NCBI GenBank assembly: GCA_947311445.1
Contig: CAMZKV010000042.1
Span: 2,982 to 66,981 of the forward strand
Source of the DNA: an uncultured Chlorobiota bacterium
Lineage (GTDB): Bacteria; Bacteroidota; Bacteroidia; Bacteroidales; JAADGE01
Direction: 5' to 3'
Length of the DNA: 64,000 nt
The notes under the pieces were generated by a model. That model saw only the letters and a list, made by a program, of their open reading frames with translations, had not been told where the DNA came from and did no database searches. The first letter of the stretch is position 1, and each line of letters opens with the position of its first letter. The position numbers were made by a program, and so were the translations under genes. Shown one piece after another: positions 18,136 to 48,525 of this stretch.

Positions 18136-18175
18136 CTCTTTTTTTATTAAAGTTAACATTAGAGTTAAATTTGTT

Positions 18176-18718: not shown

Positions 18719-18772
18719 TTTTTTTATTACTTTAAATTGTAATATTTTTGAATAAACTAGATTCCAGTTTTT

Positions 18773-20336: not shown

Positions 20337-20374
20337 ATCTATTTTTTTATGCTTTTTTACTTAATTTTACTTTT

Positions 20375-22290: not shown

Positions 22291-22839
22291 ATGGCAAAGA
22301 AAAATAAAAAAGATAGCGTTAAAAAAGACAAAAATCAAACGGTAAATTCTGAGAAAAAAATTTCAGTAAAAAAAAATAATAAGAATAAAAAAATTGAAAT
22401 AGATTTTGAAGAAAAATATAATGAACTTAATGATAAGTATCTTAGGCTTACAGCAGAATACGATAATTACAGAAAACGTACGCTAAAAGAACGTATGGAG
22501 TTAATGAAAAATGCGGGAGAAGATATTTTAATTAACTTGCTTCCTGTTATTGATAATATTGATAGAGCAAAACAATCAATTGAAGATGCAAAAGATTTAG
22601 ACTCTATAAAAGAAGGTATAAACCTGATACATAAGAATATAGTTGATTTTTTATCAAATAGAGGGATTTCTGAAATAAAAGCAGAAGGAGAAGTTTTTGA
22701 TACTGATTTACATGAGGCTATTACGAAAATACCAGCTCCCAATAACAAACTAAAAGGAAAAGTTGTTGATGTAATAGAGAAAGGTTATAAAATGAAAGAT
22801 AAAATAATTAGATACGCAAAAGTTGTTGTAGGAGAATAA
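22291..22839 (+). CDS. grpE: nucleotide exchange factor GrpE
   Basis: 182-aa ORF. RLTAEYDNYRKRT, LLPVIDNIDRA and the C-terminal GYKMKDKIIRYAKVVV pattern. Confidence 0.92.
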   Translation: MAKKNKKDSVKKDKNQTVNSEKKISVKKNNKNKKIEIDFEEKYNELNDKYLRLTAEYDNYRKRTLKERMELMKNAGEDILINLLPVIDNIDRAKQSIEDAKDLDSIKEGINLIHKNIVDFLSNRGISEIKAEGEVFDTDLHEAITKIPAPNNKLKGKVVDVIEKGYKMKDKIIRYAKVVVGE

Positions 22840-22895
22840 ATGTTTGAAGTTTTAATTATTAAATTTCAAATCAAAAATTATAAATTTCAAACAAA

Positions 22896-24032: not shown

Positions 24033-24051
24033 ATATTTATAAATTTGTTTT

Positions 24052-25296: not shown

Positions 25297-25303
25297 TATA
25301 TCT

Positions 25304-25579
25304 TCAGCCAACTTTTACAAAAACATATTTCCTATTTCCTTGAATTACTGTACACTTTGCACAATGCGACACATAAGTTACATCATAATCTTCAAGAATA
25401 TTAAATCCTTTGTTTTGAAGCATAAAAGTATTTTTACATTCTAAAACCCCTGTTGTAGAATATCTACTAATGTAGAAAATATTAATTTCAGAGCCTGTTT
25501 CAAAAAAAAACCAAGCACTTTCTCCGGTTCCATCAAGAAACTTGCTATTTTTAGGTATTATATTTTTAATTTCAGACAT
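25304..25579 (-). CDS. hypothetical small protein
   Basis: 91-aa ORF, co-directional with and 31 bp downstream of the 25611..26291 gene. No family recognised. Confidence 0.4.
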   Translation of the reverse strand: MSEIKNIIPKNSKFLDGTGESAWFFFETGSEINIFYISRYSTTGVLECKNTFMLQNKGFNILEDYDVTYVSHCAKCTVIQGNRKYVFVKVG

Positions 25580-25610
25580 TTATTTTTCAAAATTTTATTT
25601 CTTTTATAAT

Positions 25611-26291
25611 TTATATTTGTAATGGAAGCATATAATTACTGATCTGCTCTTTAAAAGAAACTTTATGTTTAAAAACTCCTTGTTCATTTACAGTATAATA
25701 ATAATTATTACAAGCAAAAACATTAGCCTTTGTAAGTGGAGTTAGTAAAAAAGAAAAAGATAACTTTAATTTAATCATAAATTTTGGATTAGATTTTTTT
25801 GCTATTGAAGTAATAAACCTAGAACAATTTGTTCCATTAATTAAGTATGGCCCATATGAAACAGCATCATTATTTTGAATAGTTTTTGCATATTCAAAAG
25901 CTAAACTAAAATCTACATTTTCGAGAACAGATGCATATAACTTACCTTTTCCTTTGCAGTTTTCATTATAAAATATTTCATTTAAAATTTCTTCAATATT
26001 TACTAATGTATTATTGGAAGAAAAAACAGCTAATGCTTTAATTTTAAGACCAGGGTCAGTTTCTTTGCTTCTTGCTCTGCCAAATTTTGTTGGCATATGA
26101 TAACGACCAAAGTCAAAATAATGCAATTCTTTTTTTTCGTGATTTACAATAACTGCAGCTGCATGTCCTGCAATATAATATCCATCTTTTAGGAAACCTA
26201 AAAACTTTGTTGCCACATCATACCATCTTCCTATTGCTTTTGCGGGTGTTTTTGGCCATGCTAAAATTATTATTGAATCTTTTTGGGGCAT
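25611..26291 (-). CDS. hypothetical protein, possible permuted papain-like (LRAT/NlpC-P60-type) fold
   Basis: 226-aa ORF whose ATG overlaps the stop of the decarboxylase gene (ATGA junction at 26291). It has His-containing GHAAAVIVNHEKKELHYF followed about 110 aa later by GTNCSRF, which resembles the H...H...NCxxF order of LRAT-like enzymes. Weak, by eye only. Confidence 0.45.
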   Translation of the reverse strand: MPQKDSIIILAWPKTPAKAIGRWYDVATKFLGFLKDGYYIAGHAAAVIVNHEKKELHYFDFGRYHMPTKFGRARSKETDPGLKIKALAVFSSNNTLVNIEEILNEIFYNENCKGKGKLYASVLENVDFSLAFEYAKTIQNNDAVSYGPYLINGTNCSRFITSIAKKSNPKFMIKLKLSFSFLLTPLTKANVFACNNYYYTVNEQGVFKHKVSFKEQISNYMLPLQI

Positions 26292-27700
26292 TAATTGTTT
26301 ATTTTATGGGCAATATCAATAAAATTTTGAAAAAAGACATCAATATCACCTTTTGTAACATCAGCATTTGAAATAACAAAACGTATTGTCAAATCTTTTT
26401 CAATATATCCATAATTAACCATTGATTTTCCACTTTTTCTTAATTCTTCCCTAATTTTCATATTGAAAGAATTTAAATCAGAAATATTTTTAGTGTTATA
26501 TCTAAAACAAACCGTTAAAGTTTGCACATCTGCCATAAGTTCAAAGCTATTGTGTTCCAATATCTTTGATTTAAAATAATTTGCAATCTCAAACAAATTA
26601 TTAATTCTTTTTTCAAAACCTATATCTCCAAAAAACTTCCAAGTAAGCCAAACTTTAAGTGCATCATTTTTTCTACCGCATTGTATTGAACTTTCACCCA
26701 AGTCGCAATTTTTTTCTTCATTTTCATGAAAAATATAGTCTGCTGTTAGTTTTGTAAGATTTGATTTAAGAACTTTATTGTCATTAAATAAAATAACGGA
26801 TGCAACCAAAGGAATATTCATCAATTTATGAGGATTCCAAGCAAAAGAATCTGCTTGTTTAAGTCCTTTAAATAAATACCTTTTTTTATTACTTAAAATT
26901 ATTGAACCTCCAAAAGACCCGTCAATATGAAAATGACAATTATATTTTTTAGAAATTTTACTTATTTCTTCAAATCTATCAAATGCTCCCAGCATTGTTG
27001 TTCCGGCAGTTCCGGCAATAAAAAAAGGCAATTCATTTTTTTTAAAAGAATTTAATATTGCGTTCTCTAATTCATTAATAATCATTTTGCCTTCTTTGTC
27101 AGATTTAACCTTAATTAAGTTATCTGCCCCTATTCCAAGTATATTTGCAGCAGTAGAAAAAGAGTAGTGTGCCTGATCTGACACAAATGCAGTTAGTACC
27201 TTTGTACTATAAAGCCCATTATTCTTGGAATTCGGAAAAACTTTATTTCTTGCAGAAAACATAGCTATAAGATTTGCATTGCTTCCTCCTGTAACAAATA
27301 TTCCTGAACCTTTTTCAAAACCTGCAATTTTACACATTTTAGAGATAAGTTCTTTCTCAATTAAAGTTGCAACCGGTGCCACTTCAAAAGTGTACATAGA
27401 AGTATTTGTTATGGAAGTTAAAATTTCTGCAATAAATCCCGGTAAAGTAAAACCTGAATAAAGTTGATTAAAAAACTGTTTATTTCCTGTTTTTACACTA
27501 TATTTAAGATAGTTTTCAACTTCATTTATTAATTGTTCTTCTGAAATAGGTTTATTCTTAATTTTTAAATTTAATTCTTTTTTTAAATTAATAGGATTTT
27601 TATATTCAATAACTTTATTTGAATTTTGGATATTATTCTCAATATAATCTAAAATAATATCGAATAATTTTGTTAGAGTTTTAGAGTAATTTGTATTCAT
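26291..27700 (-). CDS. pyridoxal-phosphate-dependent group II amino-acid decarboxylase (GAD/CSAD/DABA-decarboxylase-like)
   Basis: 469-aa ORF. PLP-lysine motif SFAWNPHKLMNIP, HIDGSFGG, and the length and layout of group II decarboxylases. Confidence 0.88.
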   Translation of the reverse strand: MNTNYSKTLTKLFDIILDYIENNIQNSNKVIEYKNPINLKKELNLKIKNKPISEEQLINEVENYLKYSVKTGNKQFFNQLYSGFTLPGFIAEILTSITNTSMYTFEVAPVATLIEKELISKMCKIAGFEKGSGIFVTGGSNANLIAMFSARNKVFPNSKNNGLYSTKVLTAFVSDQAHYSFSTAANILGIGADNLIKVKSDKEGKMIINELENAILNSFKKNELPFFIAGTAGTTMLGAFDRFEEISKISKKYNCHFHIDGSFGGSIILSNKKRYLFKGLKQADSFAWNPHKLMNIPLVASVILFNDNKVLKSNLTKLTADYIFHENEEKNCDLGESSIQCGRKNDALKVWLTWKFFGDIGFEKRINNLFEIANYFKSKILEHNSFELMADVQTLTVCFRYNTKNISDLNSFNMKIREELRKSGKSMVNYGYIEKDLTIRFVISNADVTKGDIDVFFQNFIDIAHKINN

Positions 27701-27721
27701 TTGTTAATTTTTATACTCAAT

Positions 27722-28327
27722 TTATTGAATAGATTTTAATGTTTTAACAATTTCTCTAACAGGCATCCTACGAGTATAATCTTTGTTAAAATATCCGTTA
27801 ATAATTTTTTTGTCTGTCCCAATAATATATGTTGCTGGTACAGGTAATGCGTTATCAGAATTTTTACTTGATTTTTTTAAATTTATACCTCTAAGTTTAT
27901 AAAAGAAATGAGCAAATCCGGAAACATGCCAAGTTACTTTATAATTATCCATTATTTTATGCCCTTCATCATAAACAATACTAAAATTTGCATTTGTTTT
28001 TTTAATAGTTTCATCAATGTAATAACTACTTTCTGGTGTTATTGCAATTATTTTTGCTCCTAAATCAGTAATCATAGACAAGGAATCAGAAAGATCATTC
28101 ATGTATAAATTGCAATGCTTACACCATTCACCTCTATAAAAAATAAGTACAACCGGCTGTTTATTAAGGATTTGATATAAATCAATTTTTTTATTATAAT
28201 TATCTTTAACAGAAAAATTATGAACTTTTGTTCCATTTTCAAGTTTTTGTTGTGCATTTATTGATAACGAAAAAATAATAATTAAAAAAAATGCTGTAAA
28301 TTTAATAATTTTCATTGAATATCTCAT
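27722..28327 (-). CDS. thioredoxin-fold thiol-disulfide oxidoreductase / peroxiredoxin-like protein (secreted)
   Basis: 201-aa ORF. Signal peptide and redox motif YRGEWCKHCNLY (CxxC). An alternative start is MKIIKF at 28315. The 28327 ATG is the last triplet of a repeat module. Confidence 0.72.
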   Translation of the reverse strand: MRYSMKIIKFTAFFLIIIFSLSINAQQKLENGTKVHNFSVKDNYNKKIDLYQILNKQPVVLIFYRGEWCKHCNLYMNDLSDSLSMITDLGAKIIAITPESSYYIDETIKKTNANFSIVYDEGHKIMDNYKVTWHVSGFAHFFYKLRGINLKKSSKNSDNALPVPATYIIGTDKKIINGYFNKDYTRRMPVREIVKTLKSIQ

Positions 28328-28560
28328 GTGTCTGATGTTTGTTAATTAATTGGCAATAAACAAGTTACTAATGTTTCTATTGTTATTAATATTTGTGTTT
28401 CTCTGCATATAGGAACACTTGCTATGTTCTGCAAATAAAATGTAGCTTTGTTATGTCATTTCAATGAATGTCAAAATCTATGTCTTTAGTGCTTAGCTTT
28501 GCAGAGACTCTGGGTTCATGTGTCAAAAAAAAGTTAAAAATTATTTTGATTCAATTAAAA
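28325..28560 (-). repeat. start-codon-abutting repeat: L-type module (28325-28480) plus linker and S-type 3' fragment (28517-28560)
   Basis: The reverse complement reads ...TTTTTTTTGACACATG|AACCCAGAGTCTCTGCAAAGC...ATTTTGACATTCATTG...TTGCAGAACATAGCAAGTGTTCCTATATGC...CAGACACATG(gene). It is homologous along its length to 29001-29150 and 37032-37170. Confidence 0.75.
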
Positions 28561-28700
28561 GGACATGAAAGAATTTGGCATCTTTTTTAGTTAGTATTTA
28601 GTTCATTCGAGAGAAAATACTTGAATATCAAATTATTAAAAATGCTTACTATATTTCATTAATTTAAAACTATGCAGTTTTATTATTTGCCATAAAAAGG

Positions 28701-28757
28701 AATCATTGCCTGGCTTCTGAGGAACTCTAAAAACTCAGAAGCCATATGGCAATGATT
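28701..28757. other. long two-tier hairpin in ORF-free intergenic DNA (terminator-like in both directions; possible sRNA 3' end)
   Basis: Outer stem AATCATTGCC (28701-28710) / GGCAATGATT (28748-28757). Inner stem GGCTTCTGAG (28712-28721) / CTCAGAAGCC (28734-28743). 12-nt loop, T-rich tracts on both sides. Confidence 0.6.
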
Positions 28758-29000
28758 ATTTTGTTACTAATTTGTTAATTAATATAAATTCTAAAAAATA
28801 TTTATTAAAAATTAATAATGTCTTTGCAAATATAAAATGTTTTAAAACAATGTTGTGTAACTAATATCACATTTGATTGCAAAAAAAGTAAATATTTTTG
28901 ATTCTACAAAATTATATTTATATAAATTGCACTTTTTTTAATACAAAACATTATTTTCAAACAAATATTCTCTAATGAAATAATAACAAATAAGAGCAAA

Positions 29001-29150
29001 CATTTTGACACCCAAGTGCATACTTATAATCTAGCAGATTTATTTCTTGCACAACATAGCAAGTGTTCCTATGTGCTGAACAACAGAGCTGTTTTAAATA
29101 CAAAAAGCAACTCGTTTAATATCAACTAATTAGACAATCTAAAACACATG
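29001..29150 (+). repeat. start-codon-abutting repeat, L-type module
   Basis: CATTTTGACACCCAAGTGCAT...TTGCACAACATAGCAAGTGTTCCTATGTGC...TTAGACAATCTAAAACACATG ends on the ATG of the 29148 gene. It is an inverted copy of 28325-28480. Confidence 0.75.
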
Positions 29151-30488
29151 AAAAACGGCTTCTTCGTAATTTTATTATCTCTAATATCAACTATTTTTTT
29201 TGCTCAAGAAAATGACTCTTTAAAGAAGAATAAAACTGGTTTTGGATTAGGTTTTGTTCCAATTTTTGCTTTTGATTCTGATGTTGGTTTAAAAACCGGC
29301 ATTGTTGCTAATATTTTTCATTATGGTGATGGTGAAAATTATCCAAAATATGAACATTCCTTACTTTTAAAATGGTACAGATCGACAAAAGGAAGTAGAT
29401 TAGCACAAGTTATTTATGATTCTGATAAAATTATTGAAAATGTCAGACTTACTTCTGAGTTTAGTTATATTACTGACCAAACACTTGGGTTTTATGGATT
29501 TAATGGAAGTAAATCATTTTACAATCATAATTATGAAATTCAATCAGAAAAAAATATTAATTATATTTCAAAAATTTATTATAAGCATCAAAGAAAAATG
29601 CTTCGATTTAAAACTGATTTTCAATCTCCATTCAAAAAAACTAAGTTTAAATGGTTAATTGGATTTTCGCATTATAATATTATGATTCAAAGTGTTGACA
29701 GGGATAAAATAAACAATCATAAATCAACTAAAGTTTTATTGCCTGACACAGCAACGTTATATGATAAATATGTTAAATGGGGAATTATAAAAAACTCTGA
29801 AAAGAACGGAGGAAAAATAAATTATCTAAAATCCGGAATAATTTACGACAGCAGAGATAATGAAAGTAATTGTAATTCAGGTATTTGGACAGAAGTCTTA
29901 CTTTTATATGCACCTTCATTTTTAGCAAACAAATCTAATTTCGGGAAACTATTATTAACTCATCGCCAATATTTCTCTTTAAGACTAAACAAACTTACTT
30001 TTGCATATAGATTAAGTTATCAAACAAAACTATGGGGAGAAATTCCTTATTATATGTTGCCTTTTTTCATTGATTCAAAAAAAACAGAAGATGGTTTAGG
30101 TGGTGCTAAAAACTTAAGAGGCATTTTAAGAAACAGAATAGTTAGTAACGGATTTGCAAATGGAACTACGGAATTAAGGTGGAAATTTTGGTCGTTAAAA
30201 TTTATAAAACAAGATTTTTATCTTTCATTAAATTGTTTTACTGATGTGGCTACTGTAACAGAAGAGTATAGGTTTAATACTGATTTAGTGAAATCTGACT
30301 TTGGATTCTCAGAAGAGTCTAATTTAAAAAGCATAAATTACTCTAACAATAAATTCCATTTTTCATATGGTGTTGGAGTTTACATAGTAATGAACAAAAA
30401 CTTTGTAATTTCAACTGATTATGGAAGAGCTGTTTCTTATCAAGATGGAAAATCAGGATTATATGTAGGTCTTAATTTTATATTTTAA
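29148..30488 (+). CDS. Omp85/BamA-family outer-membrane beta-barrel protein without recognisable POTRA domains
   Basis: 446-aa ORF. Signal peptide, barrel-like strands from residue about 30 (GFGLGFVPIFAFDSDVGLKTG), a loop-6-like GGAKNLRGI motif, and C-terminal YVGLNFIF. Confidence 0.6.
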   Translation: MKNGFFVILLSLISTIFFAQENDSLKKNKTGFGLGFVPIFAFDSDVGLKTGIVANIFHYGDGENYPKYEHSLLLKWYRSTKGSRLAQVIYDSDKIIENVRLTSEFSYITDQTLGFYGFNGSKSFYNHNYEIQSEKNINYISKIYYKHQRKMLRFKTDFQSPFKKTKFKWLIGFSHYNIMIQSVDRDKINNHKSTKVLLPDTATLYDKYVKWGIIKNSEKNGGKINYLKSGIIYDSRDNESNCNSGIWTEVLLLYAPSFLANKSNFGKLLLTHRQYFSLRLNKLTFAYRLSYQTKLWGEIPYYMLPFFIDSKKTEDGLGGAKNLRGILRNRIVSNGFANGTTELRWKFWSLKFIKQDFYLSLNCFTDVATVTEEYRFNTDLVKSDFGFSEESNLKSINYSNNKFHFSYGVGVYIVMNKNFVISTDYGRAVSYQDGKSGLYVGLNFIF

Positions 30489-30498
30489 ATAAAAATAG

Positions 30499-31128
30499 CT
30501 AAATAATTTCTACAATTCCTTTTTCTTGAGTAATTTGATTATTATTCTCAAGTTTTTTCAAGATTCTACTTACAACCTCTCTTGCTGTGCCCATTTCTAA
30601 TGCTATAATTTTATGAGTAATCTTTATTTTCTTTAATCCAGAAACTTTTGATTTTTCAAGAAGATATTCATAAATTCTTTTATCTAATTTTTCAAAAAGA
30701 ACATTGTTTAATGTTTCTATTAAGTCAGAATACCTTTCATCATAAAGCGAATAAAAAAGAGAATTAAATGAAGGATATTCTTTTATCCATTTTTTAACAA
30801 TATCTACTGGAAACATCATAATTACAGCATCTGTTCCCGTTGTTGCATACACCCTACTAGGAGAATTCTTTAATACTGCAGAAAGAGACATAATACAACT
30901 TTCATTTGGTTGTATGTAATATAAAAGAAATTCTTTATCTTCATATTGGCTATAGACTTTCACAACTCCACTAATTACAATAGGGAGCATTTTTAAATAT
31001 TGCCCATGCCGAATAACTTCCATCCCTTTTGGAACTTCTTTTGTTACACCATTTGACAACATATCTTTTACCAGATTTTTCTCAAAACTTGGAAACTTAT
31101 TCTTTAAAAAACGAAAATCAATATCCAT
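30499..31128 (-). CDS. Crp/Fnr family transcriptional regulator
   Basis: 209-aa ORF. N-terminal cNMP-binding-like beta-roll and C-terminal HTH (IALEMGTAREVVSRILKKLE). Confidence 0.85.
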   Translation of the reverse strand: MDIDFRFLKNKFPSFEKNLVKDMLSNGVTKEVPKGMEVIRHGQYLKMLPIVISGVVKVYSQYEDKEFLLYYIQPNESCIMSLSAVLKNSPSRVYATTGTDAVIMMFPVDIVKKWIKEYPSFNSLFYSLYDERYSDLIETLNNVLFEKLDKRIYEYLLEKSKVSGLKKIKITHKIIALEMGTAREVVSRILKKLENNNQITQEKGIVEII

Positions 31129-31139
31129 ACTCTTTTTTA

Positions 31140-33290
31140 TTAATTTAAAATAATAACTTTTTTTACTATATCTTTAATACTAACGAAATAAATTCCACTC
31201 GGCAACCCTTCAATATTAATTTTTTCAATATTTAGTTTACTATTTAATTGCTTATTCATTATTATTTTACCTTGTATATTTTTCAATTCTAAATTGATTT
31301 TATCCATGTTAATAAAACTATATGAAATAATAAGTGTTTTTTTAGTAGGATTTAGCAAAATTTTAAAATCTCCCTTGTTTTTACCTAAATCGTATATTCC
31401 TAATGGAGGATATGAATTATTTAACTCTGCAGGAATTCCCCATTTCATAAGAATACCACCTTCATCCCAACTAGAACCTTTTTCTTCATAAAGATATCCA
31501 TAAACTTTCAAAGTCAAATCAGTTTGATAAGTATCATCAGCAGTATAATCAAAAACAAAATCATGGATTGGTTCAATTACGGAAGAATTTGCAGGTATTG
31601 GATTTCCATTATTGTATGCTGCTGTATCATAAACAAAACCATCTGCACCGCTCACATTATCCCATATATTTATAAAACTTTCTTCTGTGGTTAATTTACC
31701 ATAAACATCATATAATATTTCTTCACTTTTGTTATTAAACTTCAAAACAAATTCAATAGTTTCATTTGGTTCTAAGATTTGATTTCCATTTCCCTGGCTA
31801 TCTGGAATATCGTCATCATCCACAGTTAAAAAAGGATACTTCTTTAAAATCGGGATAATAAAATCTCCTAACCAAAAATCTCCGTCAATATCAGGAGATA
31901 TTCCATATAATGAAAATTTAAATTGCCCGTTTCCAGGAATATAATCTGGTAGTTCTATTTCAAAACTTTGATTAGACCAAACTGTTTCAGAAATTGGAAT
32001 ATCATTGAAAGAAACAGAGTTTGAAATAATAGAAACATCTTCATTTTCACTTAAAATATTAGCACTCAGAGAAGTAATATTAAAATTCATTAAATTTTCA
32101 ATACTAATTTTTAAATTAATCTTATTTCCTTCTGTTATAATATTTTCAGGATTATCCGAAGGAGGAGTTACACCTTCATAAAATTCAAACCGAGCTAAAT
32201 TTGCAGGTTTTTCCCTTATCTCAAAATTATTTATAGCAAATACAGCTGCATCTTTTAAACTTGTAACCTTTATTAAACACTCAGTTGAAACATTGTCTGG
32301 AACAATCCATAATACACTCTCAGTACAAGATGGGACACTATCTATTATACTTGTCCAGTTTGCACCATTATCACTTGAAAATTCAATCTTTGCATCTGCA
32401 ATAAAATCGCTTTCCCATTGCATCTTAATTTCTCTTCCTTTTTCAACTTTTTGTCCATTTGAAGGATATAAAATATTTAAACTAGGAATACTTTCAACTA
32501 TACTTATTGTTAAATCAATATCAGTCAGAGGTTTATCATTGCTATTTGTTTCAACTTCACTTATTTCATAAACAACATCCATTCCATCTATAACTCTTCC
32601 AAAAACTGAATGCACATCATTTAACCATTCTGTTGGAGCAACAGTTATAAAATACTGAGATCCATTAGTATTAGGTCCTGAATTTGCCATTGAAAGAATT
32701 CCTGGTATATTATGTCTTAAATCCGGATGAAATTCATCATAAAAAGAATAGCCAGGTCCTCCTGTTCCTGTTCCATACGGACATCCGTCTTGAATCATAA
32801 ACCCGGAAATTACTCTATGAAATATTAAATCAGTATAAAAACCTTTTTCTGCTAAATTAATAAAATTCTGAGTAGTAACAGGTGCTAAATCTCCTCTTAA
32901 TTCAACTCTTACTTGTCCCAAACTTGTATTCCACTCAGCAATAAATATGTTCTGATTTGTAATCTCAAAAACAGAATTACTTTCATCAAAAACACCACCT
33001 CCCAATTCGCTTACACGTATCAAACAATTAGTAGATTCAACATTGGGTGTTGTCCAAGAATAAAAATTTTCTGTGCAATTGTTAACAATTTCAACCCAAT
33101 TAGTTCCATTATCTACTGAATATTCTATTTTAAAATTTGAAATACCTGTACTTTCCCATATAATATTATGTGGAGACCATGTATCCTTTATAAATTTTTC
33201 ATTTCCATTAGGAAAAATCAAATTAATTGTTTGTGAATTAGAATATTTAATAAATACAATCAGGCTTAAAAAAATTATTATATTTTTCAT
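31140..33290 (-). CDS. secreted cyclophilin-type peptidyl-prolyl cis-trans isomerase with T9SS C-terminal sorting domain
   Basis: 716-aa ORF. Cyclophilin core (FHRVISGFMIQDGCPYGTGTGGPGYSFYDEF...SMANSGPNTNGSQYFIT), flanking duplicated about 90-aa domains, and a Por-type tail (GIYFVSIKDIVKKVIILN). Confidence 0.85.
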   Translation of the reverse strand: MKNIIIFLSLIVFIKYSNSQTINLIFPNGNEKFIKDTWSPHNIIWESTGISNFKIEYSVDNGTNWVEIVNNCTENFYSWTTPNVESTNCLIRVSELGGGVFDESNSVFEITNQNIFIAEWNTSLGQVRVELRGDLAPVTTQNFINLAEKGFYTDLIFHRVISGFMIQDGCPYGTGTGGPGYSFYDEFHPDLRHNIPGILSMANSGPNTNGSQYFITVAPTEWLNDVHSVFGRVIDGMDVVYEISEVETNSNDKPLTDIDLTISIVESIPSLNILYPSNGQKVEKGREIKMQWESDFIADAKIEFSSDNGANWTSIIDSVPSCTESVLWIVPDNVSTECLIKVTSLKDAAVFAINNFEIREKPANLARFEFYEGVTPPSDNPENIITEGNKINLKISIENLMNFNITSLSANILSENEDVSIISNSVSFNDIPISETVWSNQSFEIELPDYIPGNGQFKFSLYGISPDIDGDFWLGDFIIPILKKYPFLTVDDDDIPDSQGNGNQILEPNETIEFVLKFNNKSEEILYDVYGKLTTEESFINIWDNVSGADGFVYDTAAYNNGNPIPANSSVIEPIHDFVFDYTADDTYQTDLTLKVYGYLYEEKGSSWDEGGILMKWGIPAELNNSYPPLGIYDLGKNKGDFKILLNPTKKTLIISYSFINMDKINLELKNIQGKIIMNKQLNSKLNIEKINIEGLPSGIYFVSIKDIVKKVIILN

Positions 33291-33383
33291 GTGTCTATTT
33301 TTATTGATTTATTTTTTTTCGTTAGAGAAACTCATACATTAGGATTTGTTAATATCTTTTAAAAAGATAAAGATAAAACTTTT

Positions 33384-34679
33384 TTACAAAACTTCACCAA
33401 TTGCATTCCCTTGTTCATTTATTTTTAAAATTTTAAATCTCACTATTTTATTTATTAGCTTCTTATTAAAAGGAATTTCAATTTTAATATAATTTTCAGT
33501 AAATCCAAACATTGAGTTCTCATATTTTGCTCCTTCAAAGAGAACATTATGCTCAGTATTAACAAAACGCTTATAAAACTCAATATGCTTAATATCAGAA
33601 AGTTGATGAAGCATCTTACTCCTTTTCTTAATTACTTCTTTTGAAATATGTCCTTGCATTTTTTCAGCAGGAGTACCAGAACGAACTGAAAAAGAAAACA
33701 CATGCAAAAAAGAAATATCAATATTCTTTAAAAAATTATATGTATCGCTAAAATCTTTTTCTGTTTCACCCGGAAAACCAACAATAACATCAATTCCAAG
33801 AAAAGCATCGGGTATAAGTCTGTTTATTTTCTCAATTTTATTTTTAAAAACACCAACATTATAGCGCCGTTTCATTAACTGTAAAACTTTATCGCTTCCA
33901 GATTGCAAAGGTATATGAAAATGAGGCAAAAACTTTTTTGATTGTAATGTAAATTCAATTATCTCATCTGTTATTAAATTTGGTTCAATTGAAGAAATTC
34001 TATATCGTTCAATACCTTTTACTTTATCTAATTCTTTAATTAAGTCTAAAAATGTTTCATTTGTACTTTTGCCAAAATCTCCAATATTTACACCTGTAAG
34101 AATAATTTCTTTATATCCTTTTTCAGCAATCATTTTTGCTTGTTCAACAGTTTTTAAAACTGTCTCACTCCTACTCTTTCCTCTCACACTTGGTATTGTG
34201 CAATATGTACAAGGATAGTCGCATCCATCTTGAACTTTCAAAAAAGAACGAGTTCTATCTCCTGATGAAAATGCAGCATCAAAATTTTCTATTTCTGATG
34301 TTGCACATGAATGTATAATTGCAGTTTCTTGTTTTTTAAAATCATTGAAATACTTAAAAACATTAAATTTTTCATTCATTCCTAAAACTAAATCTACACC
34401 AGGTATTTTAGCAATCTTTTCAGACTCAGCCTGTGCATAACATCCCGTTATAGTAATAAATGCATCAGGAGAATTCTTTTTTGCTTTTTTAATTGCTTCC
34501 CTACATTTCTTATCAGCTGTTCCTGTAACTGTGCAAGTATTTATAACAATAACATCAGAACTATCTCCAAAATTAACTTTCTCAAATCCTTTTTCGTAAA
34601 ATTCTCTTGCAATTGTAGATGTTTCTGAAAAATTTAATTTGCAACCTAATGTATGAAACGAAACTTTTTTATTTACCAC
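33384..34679 (-). CDS. mtaB: tRNA (t6A37) methylthiotransferase MtaB
   Basis: 431-aa ORF. MTTase N-terminal domain (VSFHTLGCKLNFSE), radical-SAM motif CDYPCTYC, and a TRAM-like C-terminus. Confidence 0.85.
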   Translation of the reverse strand: MVNKKVSFHTLGCKLNFSETSTIAREFYEKGFEKVNFGDSSDVIVINTCTVTGTADKKCREAIKKAKKNSPDAFITITGCYAQAESEKIAKIPGVDLVLGMNEKFNVFKYFNDFKKQETAIIHSCATSEIENFDAAFSSGDRTRSFLKVQDGCDYPCTYCTIPSVRGKSRSETVLKTVEQAKMIAEKGYKEIILTGVNIGDFGKSTNETFLDLIKELDKVKGIERYRISSIEPNLITDEIIEFTLQSKKFLPHFHIPLQSGSDKVLQLMKRRYNVGVFKNKIEKINRLIPDAFLGIDVIVGFPGETEKDFSDTYNFLKNIDISFLHVFSFSVRSGTPAEKMQGHISKEVIKKRSKMLHQLSDIKHIEFYKRFVNTEHNVLFEGAKYENSMFGFTENYIKIEIPFNKKLINKIVRFKILKINEQGNAIGEVL

Positions 34680-35462: not shown

Positions 35463-36902
35463 TTAACTCTTATCATATTTAATTATTCTATACAAAATTT
35501 TAATATCAATTAATTTAAAAGCAAAAGCACTTAAAATTCCAAAAGTTAAAGTAACTATCAATGCAACAGGACGATTTATTATGTATTTATTTGAAATATA
35601 AGCAGATAAAACAATCCATAATACAAATGCAAATATTGAAATAATTGATTTTATTTTTGGTTTAAAATCAAAGATTCTGAAAGCAATATATATTTGAAGA
35701 ATAGCTGTTAAACCTTGAGTTACTAAACTTGCAATTGCTGCTCCATATGCTTTCAAATCAGGTATTAATACAAAGTTTAAAACCAAATTTAAAACCAAAC
35801 CTGCTCCTGCCATAATGTTTAGTTCTTTTAAATTTCCATTTGCAGTAAGCAATGTTCCAAAAATATATGATGAAGCAATTGGAATAAACCCAAGAATTAA
35901 AATTCCAAAAACTTTTGCAGATTCTTGAATATGCTCATCATAAAAAACATAAATAATATCTTTTTTATAAAAATATAAGTTTATTGAAATAATTAGAGCA
36001 GGGATAACTAACAGTAAAAATGAAATTTTGGCTAAATGTGCAATATTTTCTTTTTTTATTAGCATTTTTGAAAACATAGGTAGCAACAATGTGGCAAACA
36101 AAAGAGCATATTGCGAAGCAGCATCTAAAATCCTAAATCCGTGAGCATATATTCCGACTTGCGTGTCTCCGTTTTCTATTAAGCGACCAATCATAACAGA
36201 ATCAAGTCTTGTATAAGAAGTCATTAATAAAACCAATAAAGCATAAGGATAACTTTTTCTTAATATAACTCTAAAAAACTGAAAATTAAAATATAGTTTT
36301 AAGCCGATTGAATTTGATTTAATAATGAAAAAAGAAACTACAACAGTTATAATATATGAAGCAGATTGTGCATATAAAAGCCAATCTATTATAAAAGATT
36401 CTTTATGTTTTAATAATAAATAACCAACAAAAATAATCATTAATAATCTGTCAAGAACAGACAATATGCTATCAACTTTAAAAAGATGTAAACCTGAAAT
36501 ACTTGAACGCATATATAAAATAAGGGAAAGTAGAAATTGATTTCCTGCCAAAATTAATAAAAACTTAATTTGTCTTTCATTATAACCTATAAAAAAAGCT
36601 CCTATTAAAATAAGAATTATATAAAAAACACCCAATAAAAACTTTAAACCTACTATATTTGAAAAATGTTTACTCAGAAGATGGTTAAATTGAGCAATAT
36701 TTCTATTATTATAATTTGTGATTCCTAAATCTAAAAAAATATTTAAAAGAAGGGAAAAATTGAATAAAGCAAAATAAAAGCCATATTCCGAAGCTCCTAC
36801 TGTATTTTGAACTGTCATATCAATACCAAAAATCCAAAAAGGCTTGATTAACAAGTTTAAAGACAATAAAAAAATAAGATTTAGGACAAATTTTTTTCTC
36901 AA
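35463..36902 (-). CDS. polysaccharide biosynthesis protein / oligosaccharide flippase (MOP/Wzx-like)
   Basis: 479-aa highly hydrophobic polytopic ORF, adjacent to glycosyltransferase genes. The ORF-track start is a TTG codon. Confidence 0.7.
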   Translation of the reverse strand: MRKKFVLNLIFLLSLNLLIKPFWIFGIDMTVQNTVGASEYGFYFALFNFSLLLNIFLDLGITNYNNRNIAQFNHLLSKHFSNIVGLKFLLGVFYIILILIGAFFIGYNERQIKFLLILAGNQFLLSLILYMRSSISGLHLFKVDSILSVLDRLLMIIFVGYLLLKHKESFIIDWLLYAQSASYIITVVVSFFIIKSNSIGLKLYFNFQFFRVILRKSYPYALLVLLMTSYTRLDSVMIGRLIENGDTQVGIYAHGFRILDAASQYALLFATLLLPMFSKMLIKKENIAHLAKISFLLLVIPALIISINLYFYKKDIIYVFYDEHIQESAKVFGILILGFIPIASSYIFGTLLTANGNLKELNIMAGAGLVLNLVLNFVLIPDLKAYGAAIASLVTQGLTAILQIYIAFRIFDFKPKIKSIISIFAFVLWIVLSAYISNKYIINRPVALIVTLTFGILSAFAFKLIDIKILYRIIKYDKS

Positions 36903-37004
36903 AAGATAAAAGTTAAGAATTGTTAAAAAATAAACATCAAAAGTAATAAATATTTGCTTTCAGTTTTTAATTTTGTCTATTTATTTAATAAAATATATGA
37001 AACA

Positions 37005-37300
37005 CCCTCAAAAAATACTCAGACACACATGAACAAAATTATAAACCTGCATATTGATTACTTGCAATAGAAAGCAAGTGTTCCTAAGTGCAAGACAACA
37101 CAATTATTTTAAGTCTCAATATTATTGAAACTTATTATATATCAATCAATTAAGCAAACACAGACTCATTAACCCGAAGGCTCAGCAAATATTAAACACC
37201 TATGAAAAAGACTTTTACACCCAAGTACATGACTAAAAATTAGATTTTACCGTGCATCTCTAATAAATACAAATTAACTTTTAACTTTTTTAAACACATG
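37005..37300 (+). repeat. three chained modules of the start-codon-abutting repeat family (5' fragment, L-type, S-type)
   Basis: ATGAAACACC...CAGACACACATG (to 37031) | AAC...CTTGCAATAGAAAGCAAGTGTTCCTAAGTGCAAG...CAGACTCATT (to 37170) | AACCCGAAGGCTCAGC...CTTTTACACCCAAGTACATGAC...TTTTACCGTGCATCTCTAATAAATACAAATTAACT...TAAACACATG (gene ATG at 37298). Confidence 0.75.
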
Positions 37301-38419
37301 AAAATTGTTGTAAATACTCGTTTACTAATTGAAAATAAACTTGATGGAATTGGTTGGTTTACATACGAAACTCTCAAAAGAATAACAAAAAATCATCCTG
37401 AACACGATTTTTATTTTCTTTTTGACCGCAAATATTCCAATAAATTTATCTTCTCTGATAATATAACACCAATAATTATAAAACCACCTGCCAGACACCC
37501 GTTTTTATGGTTTTTATGGTTTGAAATATCTGTAAAAAAAACACTAAAAAAAATTAATGCCGATTTATTTATTTCTCCTGACGGATACATTTCTTTATCC
37601 TCAAAAATCAAACAAATACCTGTTATACATGATATTAACTTTGCACATCGCCCACAAGACTTACCGTTTTTAACACGAAAATATTACAATTATTTCTTTC
37701 CTAAATTTGCAAAAAAAGCATATAAAATTGCAACAGTTTCGCAATATTCAAAAAAAGACATTGAAAATCAATATAACATTAAAAAAGATAAGACCAAAGT
37801 TGTTTATAATGGTTGCAATGAAATGTATATTCCTGTTTCAGAAAACATTAAAATTTCAACAAAACAAAAATATTCAGAAGGAAAAAATTATTTTATTTTT
37901 ATTGGAACTTTGCACCCAAGAAAAAATATTGCACGATTATTTAAAGCATTTGAAATATTTAAAGAAGAGTCAAATTCAAACTTTAAACTCGTAATTGTTG
38001 GAACAAAAATGTTCCTTACAAAAGACATTGAACAAGCATATTCTCTTTCAAAATTTAAAAATGATATTATTTTTACAGGAAGGTTAAGCCCTAATGATTT
38101 ACACCATGTTTTAGCAAGCTCTTTTGCAATGACATTTGTTCCATTGTTTGAAGGTTTTGGCATTCCACTTATAGAAGCAATGAATTGCGACATACCTGTA
38201 ATTAGCTCAAACACAACATCTTTGCCAGAAGTTGCAGGAAGTGCTGCAATATTTGTTAACCCTAACTCTATAAACGAAATTAAAAATGCAATGATTAAAA
38301 TTTCAGAAGATGAAATATTAAGAAAAAACTTAATTGAAAAAGGAAGACTGCAAAAAACATTGTTTAGTTGGGATAAAACAGCTGAAAATCTTTGGAATAT
38401 AATTAAAGAAAGTTTTTAA
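37298..38419 (+). CDS. glycosyltransferase family 4 (GT-B, retaining type)
   Basis: 373-aa ORF. C-terminal E-x7-E region FEGFGIPLIEAMNCDIPVISSNTTSLPEVAG. Confidence 0.85.
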   Translation: MKIVVNTRLLIENKLDGIGWFTYETLKRITKNHPEHDFYFLFDRKYSNKFIFSDNITPIIIKPPARHPFLWFLWFEISVKKTLKKINADLFISPDGYISLSSKIKQIPVIHDINFAHRPQDLPFLTRKYYNYFFPKFAKKAYKIATVSQYSKKDIENQYNIKKDKTKVVYNGCNEMYIPVSENIKISTKQKYSEGKNYFIFIGTLHPRKNIARLFKAFEIFKEESNSNFKLVIVGTKMFLTKDIEQAYSLSKFKNDIIFTGRLSPNDLHHVLASSFAMTFVPLFEGFGIPLIEAMNCDIPVISSNTTSLPEVAGSAAIFVNPNSINEIKNAMIKISEDEILRKNLIEKGRLQKTLFSWDKTAENLWNIIKESF

Positions 38420-41500: not shown

Positions 41501-44488
41501 ATGGCTAAGACTATTAAAGGTAAGAGACTATTTCAAATTGCAAAAGAGCTTAATGTTGGAAAAGAACATCTGATAGAACATCTTCAAAATAACAATATTG
41601 AAGCTGAAAACAGACCAAATGCAAAAATTTCTGCAGAAGGCTATGAATTGCTATTGAAAAAATTTAGTTCTGACAAATTAGTAAAAGAAGAATCAGAAAA
41701 ACTAAGAAAAGAAAGAGAAGAAAGTATTATAAAAGATACTGAAACTGAGACTGTTCTTTCAGAAGTAAAAGAACAAACAGAAGAAGTTAATAATACTATT
41801 GAAGAAACTAGCGAAGAAAAAATTCTAGAGGAGACCATAGAAGAAATAGTACCAAAAGAAACTAAAGAAGAAAAAGTTCCCGAGAAAACTAAAGATGAAA
41901 AAATTCCAGAAGAAGTTAAAGAAGAAATAATTATTGATTCGATAAAAAAGGAAGAAATTACTGAAGACTCTATGAAAGAGAGCGGTGATATAAATACTAA
42001 TGATGATTTAAAAAAAGAAAAAAATAAAAGTGAAAAAGATTTACCTGAAAAAGAAGAAGCTACTAAATCTGATAAACCAGAACAAAAAGTCAATACTTTA
42101 AAAGTTAAAGGTAAAATAGATTTGAATGCAATAAATCAAAAAACAAAACCTGATAAAAAAACGGCAAAACAAAGAAAAGAAGAACGCCATAAAAGAAGAA
42201 TTGCAAAAATTGAATCAGAAGAACTTGCCAAATTAAATAAACAAAAAAATGCTGAGCAAGAAGAAAAACTTAGACTTGCAAAAATAGAATCCAACAAAGA
42301 ATTAGAAGCAAAAAAGAAAAAAGAAGAAGCTGAAAAGAATTTTATAAAAACAAAATTTCAAAAATTAACAGGCCCAAAAGTTCTTGGGAAAATTGTTGTT
42401 GAAGAAAAAAAGAAAAAAGGCTCTAAAAAAACAACTCCCGGTGCAAAAAAAGCAGGAGTTGAAAACAGAAGAACAAAACGAAGAAAAAGAATAAGAAAAC
42501 CTATAAACACAAATACAACTGCAACTGCTAACAAAGGCAAAAAAACTTTCGACAAAAAGAAAAGATACAAAAAGAAAGAAGAAGTAAGCCAAGAAGATGT
42601 TCAAAAACAAGTTAGAGATACACTAGCAAAACTAACAAATAAATCTAAAAAAACTTCTGTAAAACACAGACGAAAAAAAAGAGACGAAGCTCAACAACAA
42701 ATTCAAGAAGATATTCAATTACAAGAAAAGGAAAAATCAATCCTTAAGTTAACTGAATTTATTTCTGCAAACGAATTAGCTAAATTTATGGATGTTTCTG
42801 TAAATAAGGTAATTGCCACAAGTTTTGAATTAGGAAAAATGGTTACAATTAATTCGAGACTAGATGCCGAAGTAATTGGAATTATTGCCGAAGAATATGG
42901 ATTTGAGGTAGAATTTGTTTCAGCTACCGAAGGTGTTGAAATTGACGACTATGAAGATAAAGAAGAAGATTTAAAACCAAGACCACCAATTGTAACAGTT
43001 ATGGGACATGTTGATCATGGAAAAACTTCTTTACTTGATTTTATTAGAGACGAAAATGTTATAGCAGGTGAAGCCGGAGGTATAACTCAACATATTGGTG
43101 CTTACAATGTTAAAATGAAGGATGGTAAAAGAATTACCTTTCTTGACACTCCCGGACATGAAGCTTTTACAGCAATGCGTGCCAGAGGTGCTAAGGTAAC
43201 TGATATTGTAATAATTATTATTGCTGCTGATGACAAAAAAATTATGCCGCAAACAGAAGAAGCCATTAACCACGCTAAAGCTGCAGAAGTACCAATAATT
43301 TTTGCTATAAACAAAATTGATAAACCCGGAGCAGATCCTGAAAGAATTAAAAAAGAACTTGCAGAAAAAAATCTACTTATTGAAGCATGGGGAGGAAAAT
43401 ATCAATCTGTTGATATTTCTGCTAAACACGGAACAAATGTTGATGCACTAATGGATGAAGTTGTTTTAGCCGCTGAAATGTTAGAGTTAACTGCAAATCC
43501 TGACAGACCTGCAAAAGGAACAATTATTGAATCTGAACTTGATAAAGGTAGAGGATACATTTCTACTATTTTAGTACAAACAGGAACTTTAAAAATTGGA
43601 GATATTGTCCTTGCAGGAGCACATTCAGGCAAAATTAAAGCAATGTTTGACGAAAGAGGTAATAAAGTAAAAGAAGCTGGCCCATCAATTCCTGTTCAAC
43701 TGCTGGGTTTAAACGGTGCTCCGCAAGCAGGAGACATTTTCTATGTTCTAAATTCAGAAAAAGAAGCAAGAGAAATTGCTGACAAAAATAAACGATTACA
43801 AAGAGAGCAAACTCTTAGAACTCATAAACATATAACTCTTGATGAAATTGGAAGAAGACTTCAATTAGGTAACTTCCAAGAAATAAATATTATTATTAAA
43901 GGTGATGTTATTGGTTCTGTTGAAGCTGTTGCTGACTCACTAATTAAACTTGGGAATGACGAAGTTCAAATAAAAGTTATACATAAAGGTGTTGGACAAA
44001 TCTCAGAAGCTGATGTTATGTTAGCTTCCGCTTCCGATGCAATAATTGTTGGTTTCCAAGTAAGACCTTCTCTTAAAGCCAAAAAACTTGCCGAAAAAGA
44101 AGAAATTGACATTAGACTATATTCAATTATTTATGAAGCAATTGAAGAAATGAAAGATGCAATGGAAGGAATGCTTTCTCCAATTATAAAAGAAGAAATT
44201 ACTGCTACTGTTGAAATTAGAAATGTATTTAAAGTTTCTAAATCTGGTAAAGTTGCAGGTTGTTTTGTTCTTGACGGAAAAATTAGTAGAGATAATAAAA
44301 TAAGAATTATTAGAGAAGGAATTGTTAAATACCAAGGAGAACTTGGTTCTTTAAGAAGATTTAAAGATGATGTTAAAGAAGTTGTTTCGGGAATGGAATG
44401 TGGTTTAAATGTTGAAAACTATAATGATATTAAAGTTGGAGACATTATTGAATCATTTAGAGAAACTGAAACAAAAAGAAAACTATAA
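41501..44488 (+). CDS. infB: translation initiation factor IF-2
   Basis: 995-aa ORF. E/K-rich N-terminal region and G domain ([28 protein letters not shown]). Confidence 0.97.
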
Positions 44489-44536: not shown

Positions 44537-44602
44537 AAAAAAATTATTATAAAAACAAACCTAACTTACTCAATATAAACTAATTAAATAATTCTTATAC
44601 AC

Positions 44603-45256
44603 ATGAACAATATTTATCTACAAAAGAATAAAATTCTTAATATTTTTCAAAAAAGTGATTTGAAACAATTCAAAATATCTGATTTTGAAAACGAATTAAA
44701 CTTTAAGATTATTTCATTTGAAAATGAAATCGAATTACTTCAAATAATTGATAAGATTTTCGTTGAACATAATTTAGAAGTTATTATAAAAATTAATAAT
44801 GTAAAATTACTTTCAGGAATTGCAGAAAGAATTGGGTTTCCAGAATATAATAAAGAACTAATCTCTACATTATATAAATTAAATAAAATAGGACTAGACA
44901 ACTTCAAAGAAGAACTTATGAGAATAGGCTTTTCAGAAGATTCTGTAAATTTAACAGAAACAATCCTAAATCTTAACGGAACATATAACAACCAAATGCA
45001 ATGTATTGAAAAATTTCTTGGTGAAACAGATTCAGGGATTGATGGAATTGTTGAAATTGAGAAACTTTTCTCTTTTCCTAAAATTAAGCAATTCAAAAAT
45101 GAAATTCAACTTGATATAACTTTATCTACTAACGAAAATAGTTTTTCTGGTACAATTTTTAAAATTGCACTTAAAGAAAACCAAAATAATATCTTATGCA
45201 AAGGTGGTACTAGTAAAGATTTTTTTAAAATATATTTTAAAACTAATGAAGTATAA
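44603..45256 (+). CDS. histidyl-tRNA synthetase-derived protein lacking catalytic motifs and the anticodon-binding domain
   Basis: 217-aa intact ORF. It aligns by eye with the middle of class II HisRS (IKINNVKLLSGIAERIGFPE, LYKLNKIGLDNFKEEL). The HisRS motifs RGLDYYTG and GGRYD are replaced by TNENSFSG and GGTSKD. Confidence 0.55.
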   Translation: MNNIYLQKNKILNIFQKSDLKQFKISDFENELNFKIISFENEIELLQIIDKIFVEHNLEVIIKINNVKLLSGIAERIGFPEYNKELISTLYKLNKIGLDNFKEELMRIGFSEDSVNLTETILNLNGTYNNQMQCIEKFLGETDSGIDGIVEIEKLFSFPKIKQFKNEIQLDITLSTNENSFSGTIFKIALKENQNNILCKGGTSKDFFKIYFKTNEV

Positions 45257-48060: not shown

Positions 48061-48371
48061 AACCATCAAAATAATACATTTTTTTCTATTTACCACTAAA
48101 TACCTTATATTAATCAAAACAACTTTTGGAACTACACATCATTTGTTTTTTTAGTTAACAATCTATTTGTTAGCTAAATAGAACAAAATTTTACTCAATA
48201 AATATAAAATTAATTCAAAGAAATTATCACTGAATATTATATATTTTATTAAAATTTTCATACTTTTATAATTTCTAAAAAAGACCTCTACTTTTCTTTA
48301 ATTTAAAAAAACATTTTTGCTTTTTATAACAACTGATATCTAAAACTAACAAATAACTATATTTTTAAGTT

Positions 48372-48525
48372 ATGAAACACCAAAGACAAAAGTTTCAGCA
48401 CACAAAGGAATGACTAAAATGTGTATTTCCTATGCATTTTTAATAAATGCAAATTGACTTTTAACTTCACACTTTCAAACTTTTAACTTTTAACTTTAAA
48501 ACTTTTAACTATTATTAGACACATG
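48372..48525 (+). repeat. start-codon-abutting repeat, S-type variant with CTTTTAAC micro-repeats
   Basis: ATGAAACACCAAAGAC...GTTTCAGCACACAAAGGAATGAC...TATGCATTTTTAATAAATGCAAATTGACTTTTAAC...(ACTTTTAAC repeated)...ATTAGACACATG ends on the ATG of the 48523 gene. Confidence 0.65.

Follow-up and report, generated by a model that had tools for sequence, protein, structure and literature searches.

The DNA analyzed here is a 64,000-nucleotide (nt) stretch of contig CAMZKV010000042.1, referred to as the window, from an uncultured, low-GC lineage of the Bacteroidales. The repeats under study are placed between two divergent genes: a Wzx-like flippase gene (Polysacc_synt; 35463–36902, minus strand) and a GT4 glycosyltransferase gene (37298–38419, plus strand; Pfam Glycos_transf_1 and Glyco_transf_4), whose start codon is the last ATG of a repeat unit. 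These repeats are probably one L and one S unit of a family that inserts at start codons, with each unit supplying a replacement start codon, and not parts of an invertible switch.

The site in front of GT4 can be read part by part. The Bacteroidetes −7 promoter consensus is TAnnTTTG, and it is matched by the box TAATTTTG at 36968–36975 (plus strand). This box is present in the window, in the close relative GCA_054023215.1 (locus L124) and in relatives L125–L129, and occurs as TAATTTTA in L130; it is the probable native promoter element of GT4. An ATGAAA follows 21 nt past the box (36997–37002), at the position where GT4 starts in relatives that lack the repeats. From here, 301 base pairs (bp) of units run to ...ACACATGAAA, which provides the present GT4 start (37298). 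The L unit occupies 36997–37167 on the plus strand (nhmmer 36992–37176, E 2.7e-32; aligned with seven other units). It contains a decayed 5′ box, CAGACACACATGAACAAAATTATAAA (37020–37045), which aligns with TTGACACCCAAGTGCATACTTATAAT of the unit at 29 kb, and the core (37061–37094), which includes a 14-mer at 37073–37086 and can pair either as an inner stem, CTTGC/GCAAG, or as an outer one, TTGCA/TGCAA. The S unit occupies 37168–37297 on the same strand (nhmmer 37181–37320, E 6.6e-19; 87% match to 2325–2392) and is made up of a box at 37214–37224, an AT-rich tail, TTAACTT heptamers at 37274–37289 and the end AAACAC. The two units meet at ACTCATTAAC (37164–37173), which appears to be a decayed form of ACACATGAAC when compared with the intact unit–unit junctions AGACACATGAAACACC, in locus L131 of GCA_054023215.1, and GACACATGAACCC, at 28523–28512 of the window.

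An earlier reading of this DNA, here called the original prediction, had described the region upstream of GT4 as modular and largely repeat-derived, and had singled out the core as a genuine shared element. Both points are borne out by the family profile and the extended alignments given below. The strings that it quoted are also correct: ACACATG at 37025–37031, ACTCATT at 37164–37170 and the 34-mer at 37061–37094 with its TTGC-N8-GCAA stem. It had, however, counted three modules, where the alignments give two, L (36997–37167) and S (37168–37297); the ACACATG “fragment” aligns with the TTGACACCCAAGTG box of the L unit. It had also placed the repeats throughout the divergent promoter. Instead, the units lie downstream of the promoter-like box, between the ancestral start at 36997 and the present one at 37298. 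GT4 is most likely transcribed from its native promoter with a leader of approximately 300 nt of repeat DNA, as judged from this arrangement.

Comparison with relatives provides the state of the site before and after the units. Six relatives with the same flippase/GT4 pair (L125–L130; GT4 77–82% identical) all lack units, and in each of them TAATTTT(G/A) is followed 18–21 nt on by ATGAA[A/T/G]AT. In the window and L124, ATGAAA and AAGAAA, respectively, stand at this position, followed by the units and then by ACACATGAAAATTG; L124 has the same L+S chain as the window. When the insert is removed, the window is colinear with all six empty relatives from the promoter into the gene.

Further filled and empty sites are found at cinA and at an adjoining gene of 175 residues, for which the relatives L132 and L133 were compared together with L131, whose CinA is 96% identical to that of the window. 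At cinA, no unit is present in L132 or L133 (...ATGAAAGC); a single S unit stands in the window, and L131 carries a tandem pair of L units joined as AGACAC-ATGAAA-CACCC. The 175-residue gene has no unit in L132, is preceded by an S unit in the window and by an L unit in L131, and in L133 is filled by a third interior type. In addition, a full L unit precedes gene 44603 in L124, of which only the last ~60 nt are left in the window. These alignments show filled and empty sites at three genes, and unit swaps and tandem copies between close relatives. Units would appear to arrive at start codons, stack, be exchanged and decay, all within about 5–6% nucleotide divergence.

Nothing else here changes as fast as the units. 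In the comparison of the window with GCA_054023215.1, third codon positions are 90–96% identical and the adjacent promoter region is 98.9% identical, whereas units are 78–92% identical over ungapped columns and 66–84% identical when gaps are counted, with many insertions and deletions. The units therefore change faster than synonymous sites, so that most of their sequence is unlikely to be under strong selection.

Membership in a single, lineage-restricted family is shown by several searches. The 14-mer AGCAAGTGTTCCTA has exactly three copies in the window, at 28410–28423 (minus), 29058–29071 (plus) and 37073–37086 (plus), in the orientations originally described, and shuffled sequences yield 0.3 matches even with two mismatches permitted. 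Similarity extends outside the core: 28998–29097 matches 37013–37112 at 72% over 100 nt, and 37228–37295 matches 2325–2392 at 87% over 68 nt. An nhmmer profile built from eight copies detects seven window copies, at E-values between 5e-14 and 5e-36. Across the window, GCA_054023215.1 and L008, E-values range from 1e-14 to 1e-39, and there is one match in L133. Locus L008 is the sole true relative among the 119 loci returned by a scan of genome contigs with the 14-mer, the other 118 being chance matches in unrelated genomes. The unit profile has zero matches in 886 kb from 121 unrelated loci.

Searches elsewhere were negative. Plasmid and phage collections gave no match. The core was not found in viral contigs, where the junction 18-mer gave three chance matches (two in DNA of 57–60% GC and one at 41% GC). 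Rfam has nothing at its gathering score anywhere in the window, and matches in 28250–29250 are at chance level only (E > 0.3). When a 29-nt core pattern was sought in metagenome contigs, it was found at three orthologous loci of an organism of 44–46% GC; these share only the core, have no similarity to the profile and were judged to be chance. The sequence there is GCATGCAGGAGCAAGTGTTCCTACATGC, which holds the same 14-mer within a GCATG/CATGC stem (L120 8902–8930, L121 2991–3019, L122 718–746). Those copies are intergenic, antisense to the downstream gene and without other unit similarity, and are probably fortuitous.

Units range in length from approximately 115 to 190 bp and have constant ends with exchangeable interiors. 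S and L units align over a common 5′ part and a common 3′ end and differ in the middle. The 5′ part reads ATGAAAC(A/T)C, a short spacer and then TTTTGACAC-CAAG-GCATGAC-TA(T/A)AA(T/A), with the TTGACACCCAAGTG box present near the 5′ end of every unit. The 3′ end reads ...TTTTAGACAC followed by ATGAAA, that is, (A)GACAC before ATGAA. L middles carry the core, and S middles carry GTGCAT...ATGCA and a heptamer tail. This tail is built from tandem ACTTTTA/TTAACTT heptamers, which number from two to eight copies depending on the locus (48457–48514, 915–942 and 37274–37289 in the window; 9960–9995 in L124). At the GT4 site, heptamer copy number differs between orthologues, the S unit being 130 nt in the window and 150 nt in L124. 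The L008 unit joins an L middle to an S tail, and the third interior type in L133 (X) has the same unit ends and lacks the core. Terminal inverted repeats were sought in 12 units, and in 11 of them end-to-end inverted similarity is no better than in shuffles.

The conserved 5′ box of the units could be a promoter in its own right. It can be read as TTGACA-N14-TATAAT-like or as TTTG-N19-TAnnnnnG, with spacing that is poor for both consensuses, and a sigma-70 scan of the repeat region gave background level only. An alternative reading of the TGAAAC of the unit as an ECF-sigma −35 element was dropped because that ATGAAA is the old start codon at GT4. There is no GGAGG in the last 20 nt of the units, which are AT-rich and end in AGACAC. 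A missing Shine–Dalgarno site is expected, as Bacteroidia ribosomes ignore such sites (PMC7797042).

The units are locked in orientation and fused to genes. At all 11 or more independent loci they are oriented in the sense direction, with the final unit joined directly to the ATG of the gene in every case; the probability of the orientation alone arising by chance is 2^-11. Positions −4 to −1 read ACAC, ACTC or ACAG in eight of eight unit-bearing genes and in none of 48 other genes (p = 7e-10), and a start of ATGAA is found in 7/8 unit-bearing genes and 15/48 others (p = 0.004). The downstream genes are unrelated: they encode peroxiredoxin-family, Omp85-family, GT4, CinA, MORN/caspase, HisRS-like and PPIase proteins, and an unannotated open reading frame (ORF) in L008. 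Within the window, 8 of 56 genes are affected, which is about one in seven.

The footprints suggest a simple mechanism. A unit would begin at ATGAA, end in (A)GACAC plus ATGAA, and land right after the gene's own ATGAA(A). The gene would then regain a start codon from the 3′ end of the unit, with its reading frame restored, and the old start codon would be left as the head of a very short, non-conserved upstream ORF. At GT4, where the units would have been inserted between the native promoter box and the coding sequence, the ATGAAA at 36997 opens an upstream ORF of 11 codons (MKHPQKILRHT, stop at 37030–37032). As the corresponding ATGAAA is mutated to AAGAAA in L124, this ORF is not conserved. 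A conserved leader peptide was considered and rejected: upstream ORFs begin MKH or MKL but can have any length between 4 and 13 codons, and L124 no longer has the ATG. In chaining, a new unit would use the ATGAA of the resident unit, so that neighbors have one ATGAA(A) in common. A strand-specific, non-palindromic pentamer would explain the orientation lock, and selection would explain why only start-codon insertions are seen. These footprints would fit either target-specific, single-strand-type transposition or site-specific integration with a five-base core.

We infer present or past mobility of the units, their transcription as a leader and possibly some promoter or regulatory role. A more specific proposal, that they are previously undescribed, non-autonomous mobile elements which home to start codons in this uncultured, low-GC Bacteroidales lineage, inserting strand-specifically after ATGAA, is put forward tentatively, at rather less than an even chance. 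Several observations weigh against the start-codon insertion reading in general. Transposase, recombinase and reverse transcriptase genes are all missing from the ~250 kb sampled from these genomes, so that mobility is deduced from comparisons only. The sequence after the left ATGAA varies (ACACC, ACTCT, AATAA, CCCAG, AGTTTC), which is a poor fit to one defined left end. Many genes of this AT-rich genome start with ATGAAA, and part of the pattern could reflect selection and not the choice of target. At the 175-residue gene, the S unit of the window and the L unit of L131 have their first ~20 nt in common, which indicates that at least some of the swaps reflect recombination between units and not fresh insertion. 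Finally, repeated precise loss in the relatives is, strictly, still conceivable.

The type of element that might be involved can be considered further. IS608/ISDra2-type elements are expected to leave footprints of this kind, and the units could be non-autonomous derivatives of a single-strand (HUH-type, IS200/IS605-like) or other target-specific transposon that inserts strand-specifically 3′ of ATGAA and survives selection only at start codons, where the gene is restored. They lack terminal inverted repeats and contain internal hairpins; the non-palindromic pentamer flanking them on the left recurs as their final bases, their orientation follows that of the pentamer, and tandem units share one copy. 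However, a TnpA or TnpB gene is found in none of the sampled loci (~250 kb), the hairpin is central only, the two ends lack a matching subterminal pair, an unstructured AT-rich tail forms the 3′ end, and the left ends vary in sequence. This derivation is judged unlikely.

A low probability is likewise given to the opposite view, in which nothing is mobile and a few ancestral leaders of the ordinary kind were multiplied through segmental duplication or gene conversion, the joints being guided by microhomology at ATGAA. The first ~20 nt shared by S and L units at the same gene point to recombination between units, deletions between short AT-rich repeats are observed, and “putative mobile promoters” are a common occurrence for which no mechanism is known (PMC3575422). 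Against copying of this sort stand three clean filled/empty pairs with joints exactly at the start codon, the involvement of approximately one in seven window genes, and the occurrence of the same ends on units with different interiors. In addition, microhomology of six bases seldom gives such regular products by itself.

The core is the best-kept island in the middle of the L unit and is predicted to form a weak hairpin. When 12 L copies are compared, approximately GCAAGTGTTCC is left as the invariant part. Pairing is seen in 82% of cells for the inner stem CTTGC/GCAAG and in 75% for the alternative outer stem TGCA/TGCA, the two being mutually exclusive. Hairpin z-scores range from 0 to about −2, with −2.1 for the GT4 core. 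A covariation test of both stems gave nothing above shuffles.

These features raise the possibility of a shared cis-regulatory leader, in which the units, and especially the L core, would act as a structured RNA or as a binding site for a protein or small RNA that co-regulates the genes, their spread being a by-product of selection for such control, as has been suggested for the REP2-associated contact regulon of Neisseria. The strict sense orientation within the 5′ leader would suit such a role, as would the conservation of GCAAGTGTTCC in otherwise fast-evolving units, the retention of G-U pairing by most single changes in the inner stem, and the two mutually exclusive stems. Set against this, neither stem covaries beyond shuffles, the whole leader folds no more stably than shuffles (z = −0.28), and Rfam offers no match. 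The core is removed from the orthologous, Omp85-side unit of L124 by a clean 29-nt deletion. S and X units stand at comparable sites without it, one and the same gene can have L in one close relative and S in another, and the downstream genes have no obvious common function. A shared regulatory leader is judged unlikely. Site occupancy does not depend on the core, which appears to be a motif internal to its module and neither a switch nor the defining or mobilizing feature of the units.

The suggestion that the core is a regulator-binding site is not supported: S and X units lack the core, its stems do not covary and six relatives have no units before GT4. Its conservation at orthologous loci, which had also been raised, fails at the Omp85 locus, where the 29-nt deletion in GCA_054023215.1 has taken it away. 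Binding of the core palindrome by the Crp/Fnr-family regulator is pure speculation. As a separate observation, AGCAAGTGTTCC (37073–37084 and other L cores) matches 10 of 12 positions of AGGAGGTGTTCC, the complement of the Bacteroidetes 16S rRNA 3′ tail, GGAACACCUCCU; this was seen after the fact and may be coincidence. Three independent copies of the core have G for A, giving GGTGTTCC or AGGTGTTCC (GT4 in L124, 17769 in L133 and HtrA in L131).

The same core had also been proposed as a recombination site for phase variation of surface polysaccharide. Here, the cores would serve as recombinase sites, with 28405–28434 and 37061–37094 inverting 8.6 kb, and 29047–29076 and 37061–37094 producing a deletion, thereby switching the glycosyltransferase operon. 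Inverted pairs do exist, 28396–28434 against 29047–29085 (39 nt, 87%) and 28388–28438 against 37058–37108 (51 nt, 76%), and invertible promoters are well known in Bacteroidales. The arms, however, are the centers of whole units that face their own genes, with homology continuing on both sides. The cores stand in inverted or direct relation because each unit points at its own gene, the AhpC-like gene on the minus strand and the Omp85-like and GT4 genes on the plus strand. From AhpC to GT4, the window and GCA_054023215.1 agree in gene order and orientation, with neither an inversion nor a deletion of 8.6 kb between them, and one of the arms is deleted in GCA_054023215.1. Among the 56 genes of the window there are no Pfam matches to recombinases, integrases or transposases. 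The segments would also hold essential-looking genes (MiaB-like, ECH), and units stand before cinA and other genes that have no inverted partner nearby. An inverton is therefore very improbable. Further contigs carrying the AhpC-family protein were sought for structural variants, and none is on record. Recombination seems instead to act on repeats at the unit ends and in the shared 5′ parts, where it swaps units and makes tandem copies, and not at the core.

The setting of GT4 is also unlike that of typical variable capsule loci. All seven related loci examined keep the ECH-flippase/GT4 arrangement, and GT4 orthologues 60–91% identical are found across many metagenome-assembled genomes. In the lineage of the window, rimP-nusA-infB comes next after GT4 and a second glycosyltransferase gene.

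Among known repeats, the best match in kind appears to be with Neisseria REP2 (CREN) and the Borrelia IR-A and IR-B repeats, which carry a promoter, a site for ribosome binding plus an ATG directly upstream of genes (PMC3184786). Shared features are a length of 120–180 bp, the lack of terminal inverted repeats, a position right next to the gene in a single orientation, an ATG supplied by the repeat, functionally varied genes, promoter-like hexamers near the 5′ end and internal stem-loops (PMC3184786). The likeness is one of kind, by description, and not of family, as the phylum differs and homology is not expected at 28% GC. Unlike REP2 and IR-A/B, the units have no Shine–Dalgarno site, as expected for Bacteroidia. 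They also offer direct filled/empty evidence, with the unit placed after the old start, and they are chained, swapped and provided with several interiors between the same ends.

Other classes resemble the units in part. The putative mobile promoters of Matus-Garcia, Nijveen and van Passel share closely similar upstream regions before non-homologous genes of one genome, with no known mobile element attached (PMC3575422), but that class is defined by similarity at −150 to −50 only, and not by start-codon fusion, ends or chaining. Mycobacterial interspersed repetitive units (MIRUs) are likewise short, orientation-locked intergenic repeats, often tandem, with ends that overlap stop and start codons and with empty and filled sites (PMC3184786); they differ in lying between operon genes, in being GC-rich, in having imperfect inverted ends and in keeping an ORF through the unit. 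TAACTGA heptamers of Beggiatoaceae, some Cyanobacteria and Bacteroidetes form forward tandem arrays of variable copy number just before the start codons of unrelated genes (PMC4679880). The heptamer there differs from the present one, which forms just the tail of a larger unit. Bacteroidales invertons also place intergenic inverted repeats near genes of surface-polysaccharide type. In the window, by contrast, no promoter segment is flanked, the partners of the 37-kb core lie 8 kb off across housekeeping genes, and no alternative orientation is seen. Lastly, the units differ from miniature inverted-repeat transposable elements in having no terminal inverted repeats, and the ATGAA at both ends never varies in sequence, which is better explained by a specific target or by a copy borne on the element than by a generic duplication.

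Lineage-specific, start-codon-fused cassettes appear to be a rare and poorly understood kind of bacterial repeat. If the frequency in the window holds genome-wide, approximately one gene in seven of this lineage would have its native 5′ leader displaced by repeat DNA, which bears on translation start and gene rewiring in Bacteroidia, where Shine–Dalgarno sites are not used. The units would be a second, independent example of the REP2/IR class, one in which before-and-after sites make the mode of spread directly testable. If homing to start codons is correct, insertion would be harmless to the gene and still rewrite its whole 5′ leader, by means of the spare 3′ ATGAA. Leaders, and perhaps promoters too, could in this way be shuttled naturally from gene to gene, and the genome should encode an enzyme with a five-base, start-codon-centered target. 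Two warnings for annotation follow: inverted copies of a unit can mimic invertons, and an ATG left over from insertion can mislead gene callers.

The remaining units of the window are distributed as follows. On the minus strand, an L unit (28328–28519; nhmmer 28505–28320, E 6.8e-32) is fused to an AhpC/TSA-family gene (27722–28327, start codon at 28327) and is preceded by an S-tail fragment (28520–28545). On the plus strand, the L unit at 28975–29147 (nhmmer 28973–29157, E 5.2e-36) is fused to an Omp85-family gene (29148–30488). The S unit of cinA (gene 1062–2312, start codon at 2312) is at 2313–2428 on the minus strand (nhmmer 2435–2303, E 1.5e-20). That of the 175-residue gene, which is of unknown function (376–903, start codon at 903), is at 904–1037 on the same strand (nhmmer 1032–895, E 5.1e-14) and begins 3 nt after a perfect TATATTTG box (1041–1048). 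A further S unit, at 48372–48522 on the plus strand (nhmmer 48366–48530, E 1.6e-26), is fused to a MORN/caspase-domain gene (48523–50913); its tail has eight copies of ACTTTTA as a tandem repeat (48457–48514). The L-unit 3′ tail that remains before gene 44603–45256 is at 44545–44602 (plus strand) and corresponds to the full unit at 17231–17412 of L124 (E 7.7e-22). A possible minimal unit consisting of ends only (ATGAGTTTC...AGACAC) precedes a secreted PPIase gene (31140–33290) at 33291–33335 on the minus strand; this is a weak assignment made by eye, without a profile match.

Three further genes carry units in the relatives: an HtrA-like gene, the L008 ORF at 3171–4076 and gene 17769 of L133, the last two lacking Pfam annotation. 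The N-terminus of the L008 ORF resembles PyrB, by eye only. At 3171–3185 it opens with ATGAAACACC (MKH...), which is identical to the commonest 5′ end of a unit. The right junction in L008 thus resembles a unit–unit junction, which could hint at the origin of unit ends or be coincidence.

The middle of the AhpC/Omp85 intergenic region (28545–28960) is ~94–100% identical between the window and GCA_054023215.1, far above the flanking units. It includes a near-perfect 21-bp hairpin at 28701–28757 (z = −5.8 on both strands) with T-runs on both strands, resembling a two-way terminator. No Rfam match and no convincing ORF were found in 28545–28960, which may hold one or two small, convergent RNA genes.

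The window as a whole has a GC content of 27.75% and contains housekeeping genes and several proteins with a type IX secretion sorting domain. The nearest public proteins come from metagenome-assembled genomes of uncultured “Bacteroidales” or “Chlorobi”. The start of the flippase gene is ambiguous: the longest ORF begins with TTG at 36902 (479 residues), whereas one gene call begins with ATG at 36818 (451 residues). The DNA upstream of 36818 is kept among relatives and reads as a hydrophobic N-terminus, which favors the longer form.

Gene order upstream of the flippase differs between lineages. In relatives L127, L129 and L130, a block of AA-kinase, rhomboid, holA, two unknown genes and ECF sigma directly abuts ECH-flippase, whereas ~15 kb separates the two in the lineage of the window (14925–19333 and 19530–34679 of the window). 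The intervening genes encode a Kelch protein, grpE, dnaJ, TseH-like, PLP decarboxylase, AhpC, Omp85, Crp, PPIase and MiaB-like products, and several unit-bearing genes fall within this inserted or rearranged stretch. The gene for the secreted, cyclophilin-type PPIase (31140–33383 of the window), which lies between the Crp-family and MiaB-like genes, is missing at the corresponding junction of GCA_054023215.1 (L124 6034–6071). Two further repeats are ordinary coding repeats: 27-nt tandem repeats at 41801–41932, where the N-terminal part of infB is rich in lysine and glutamate, and diverged 86-nt repeats at 48589–49676, which encode the MORN repeats of the caspase-domain protein.

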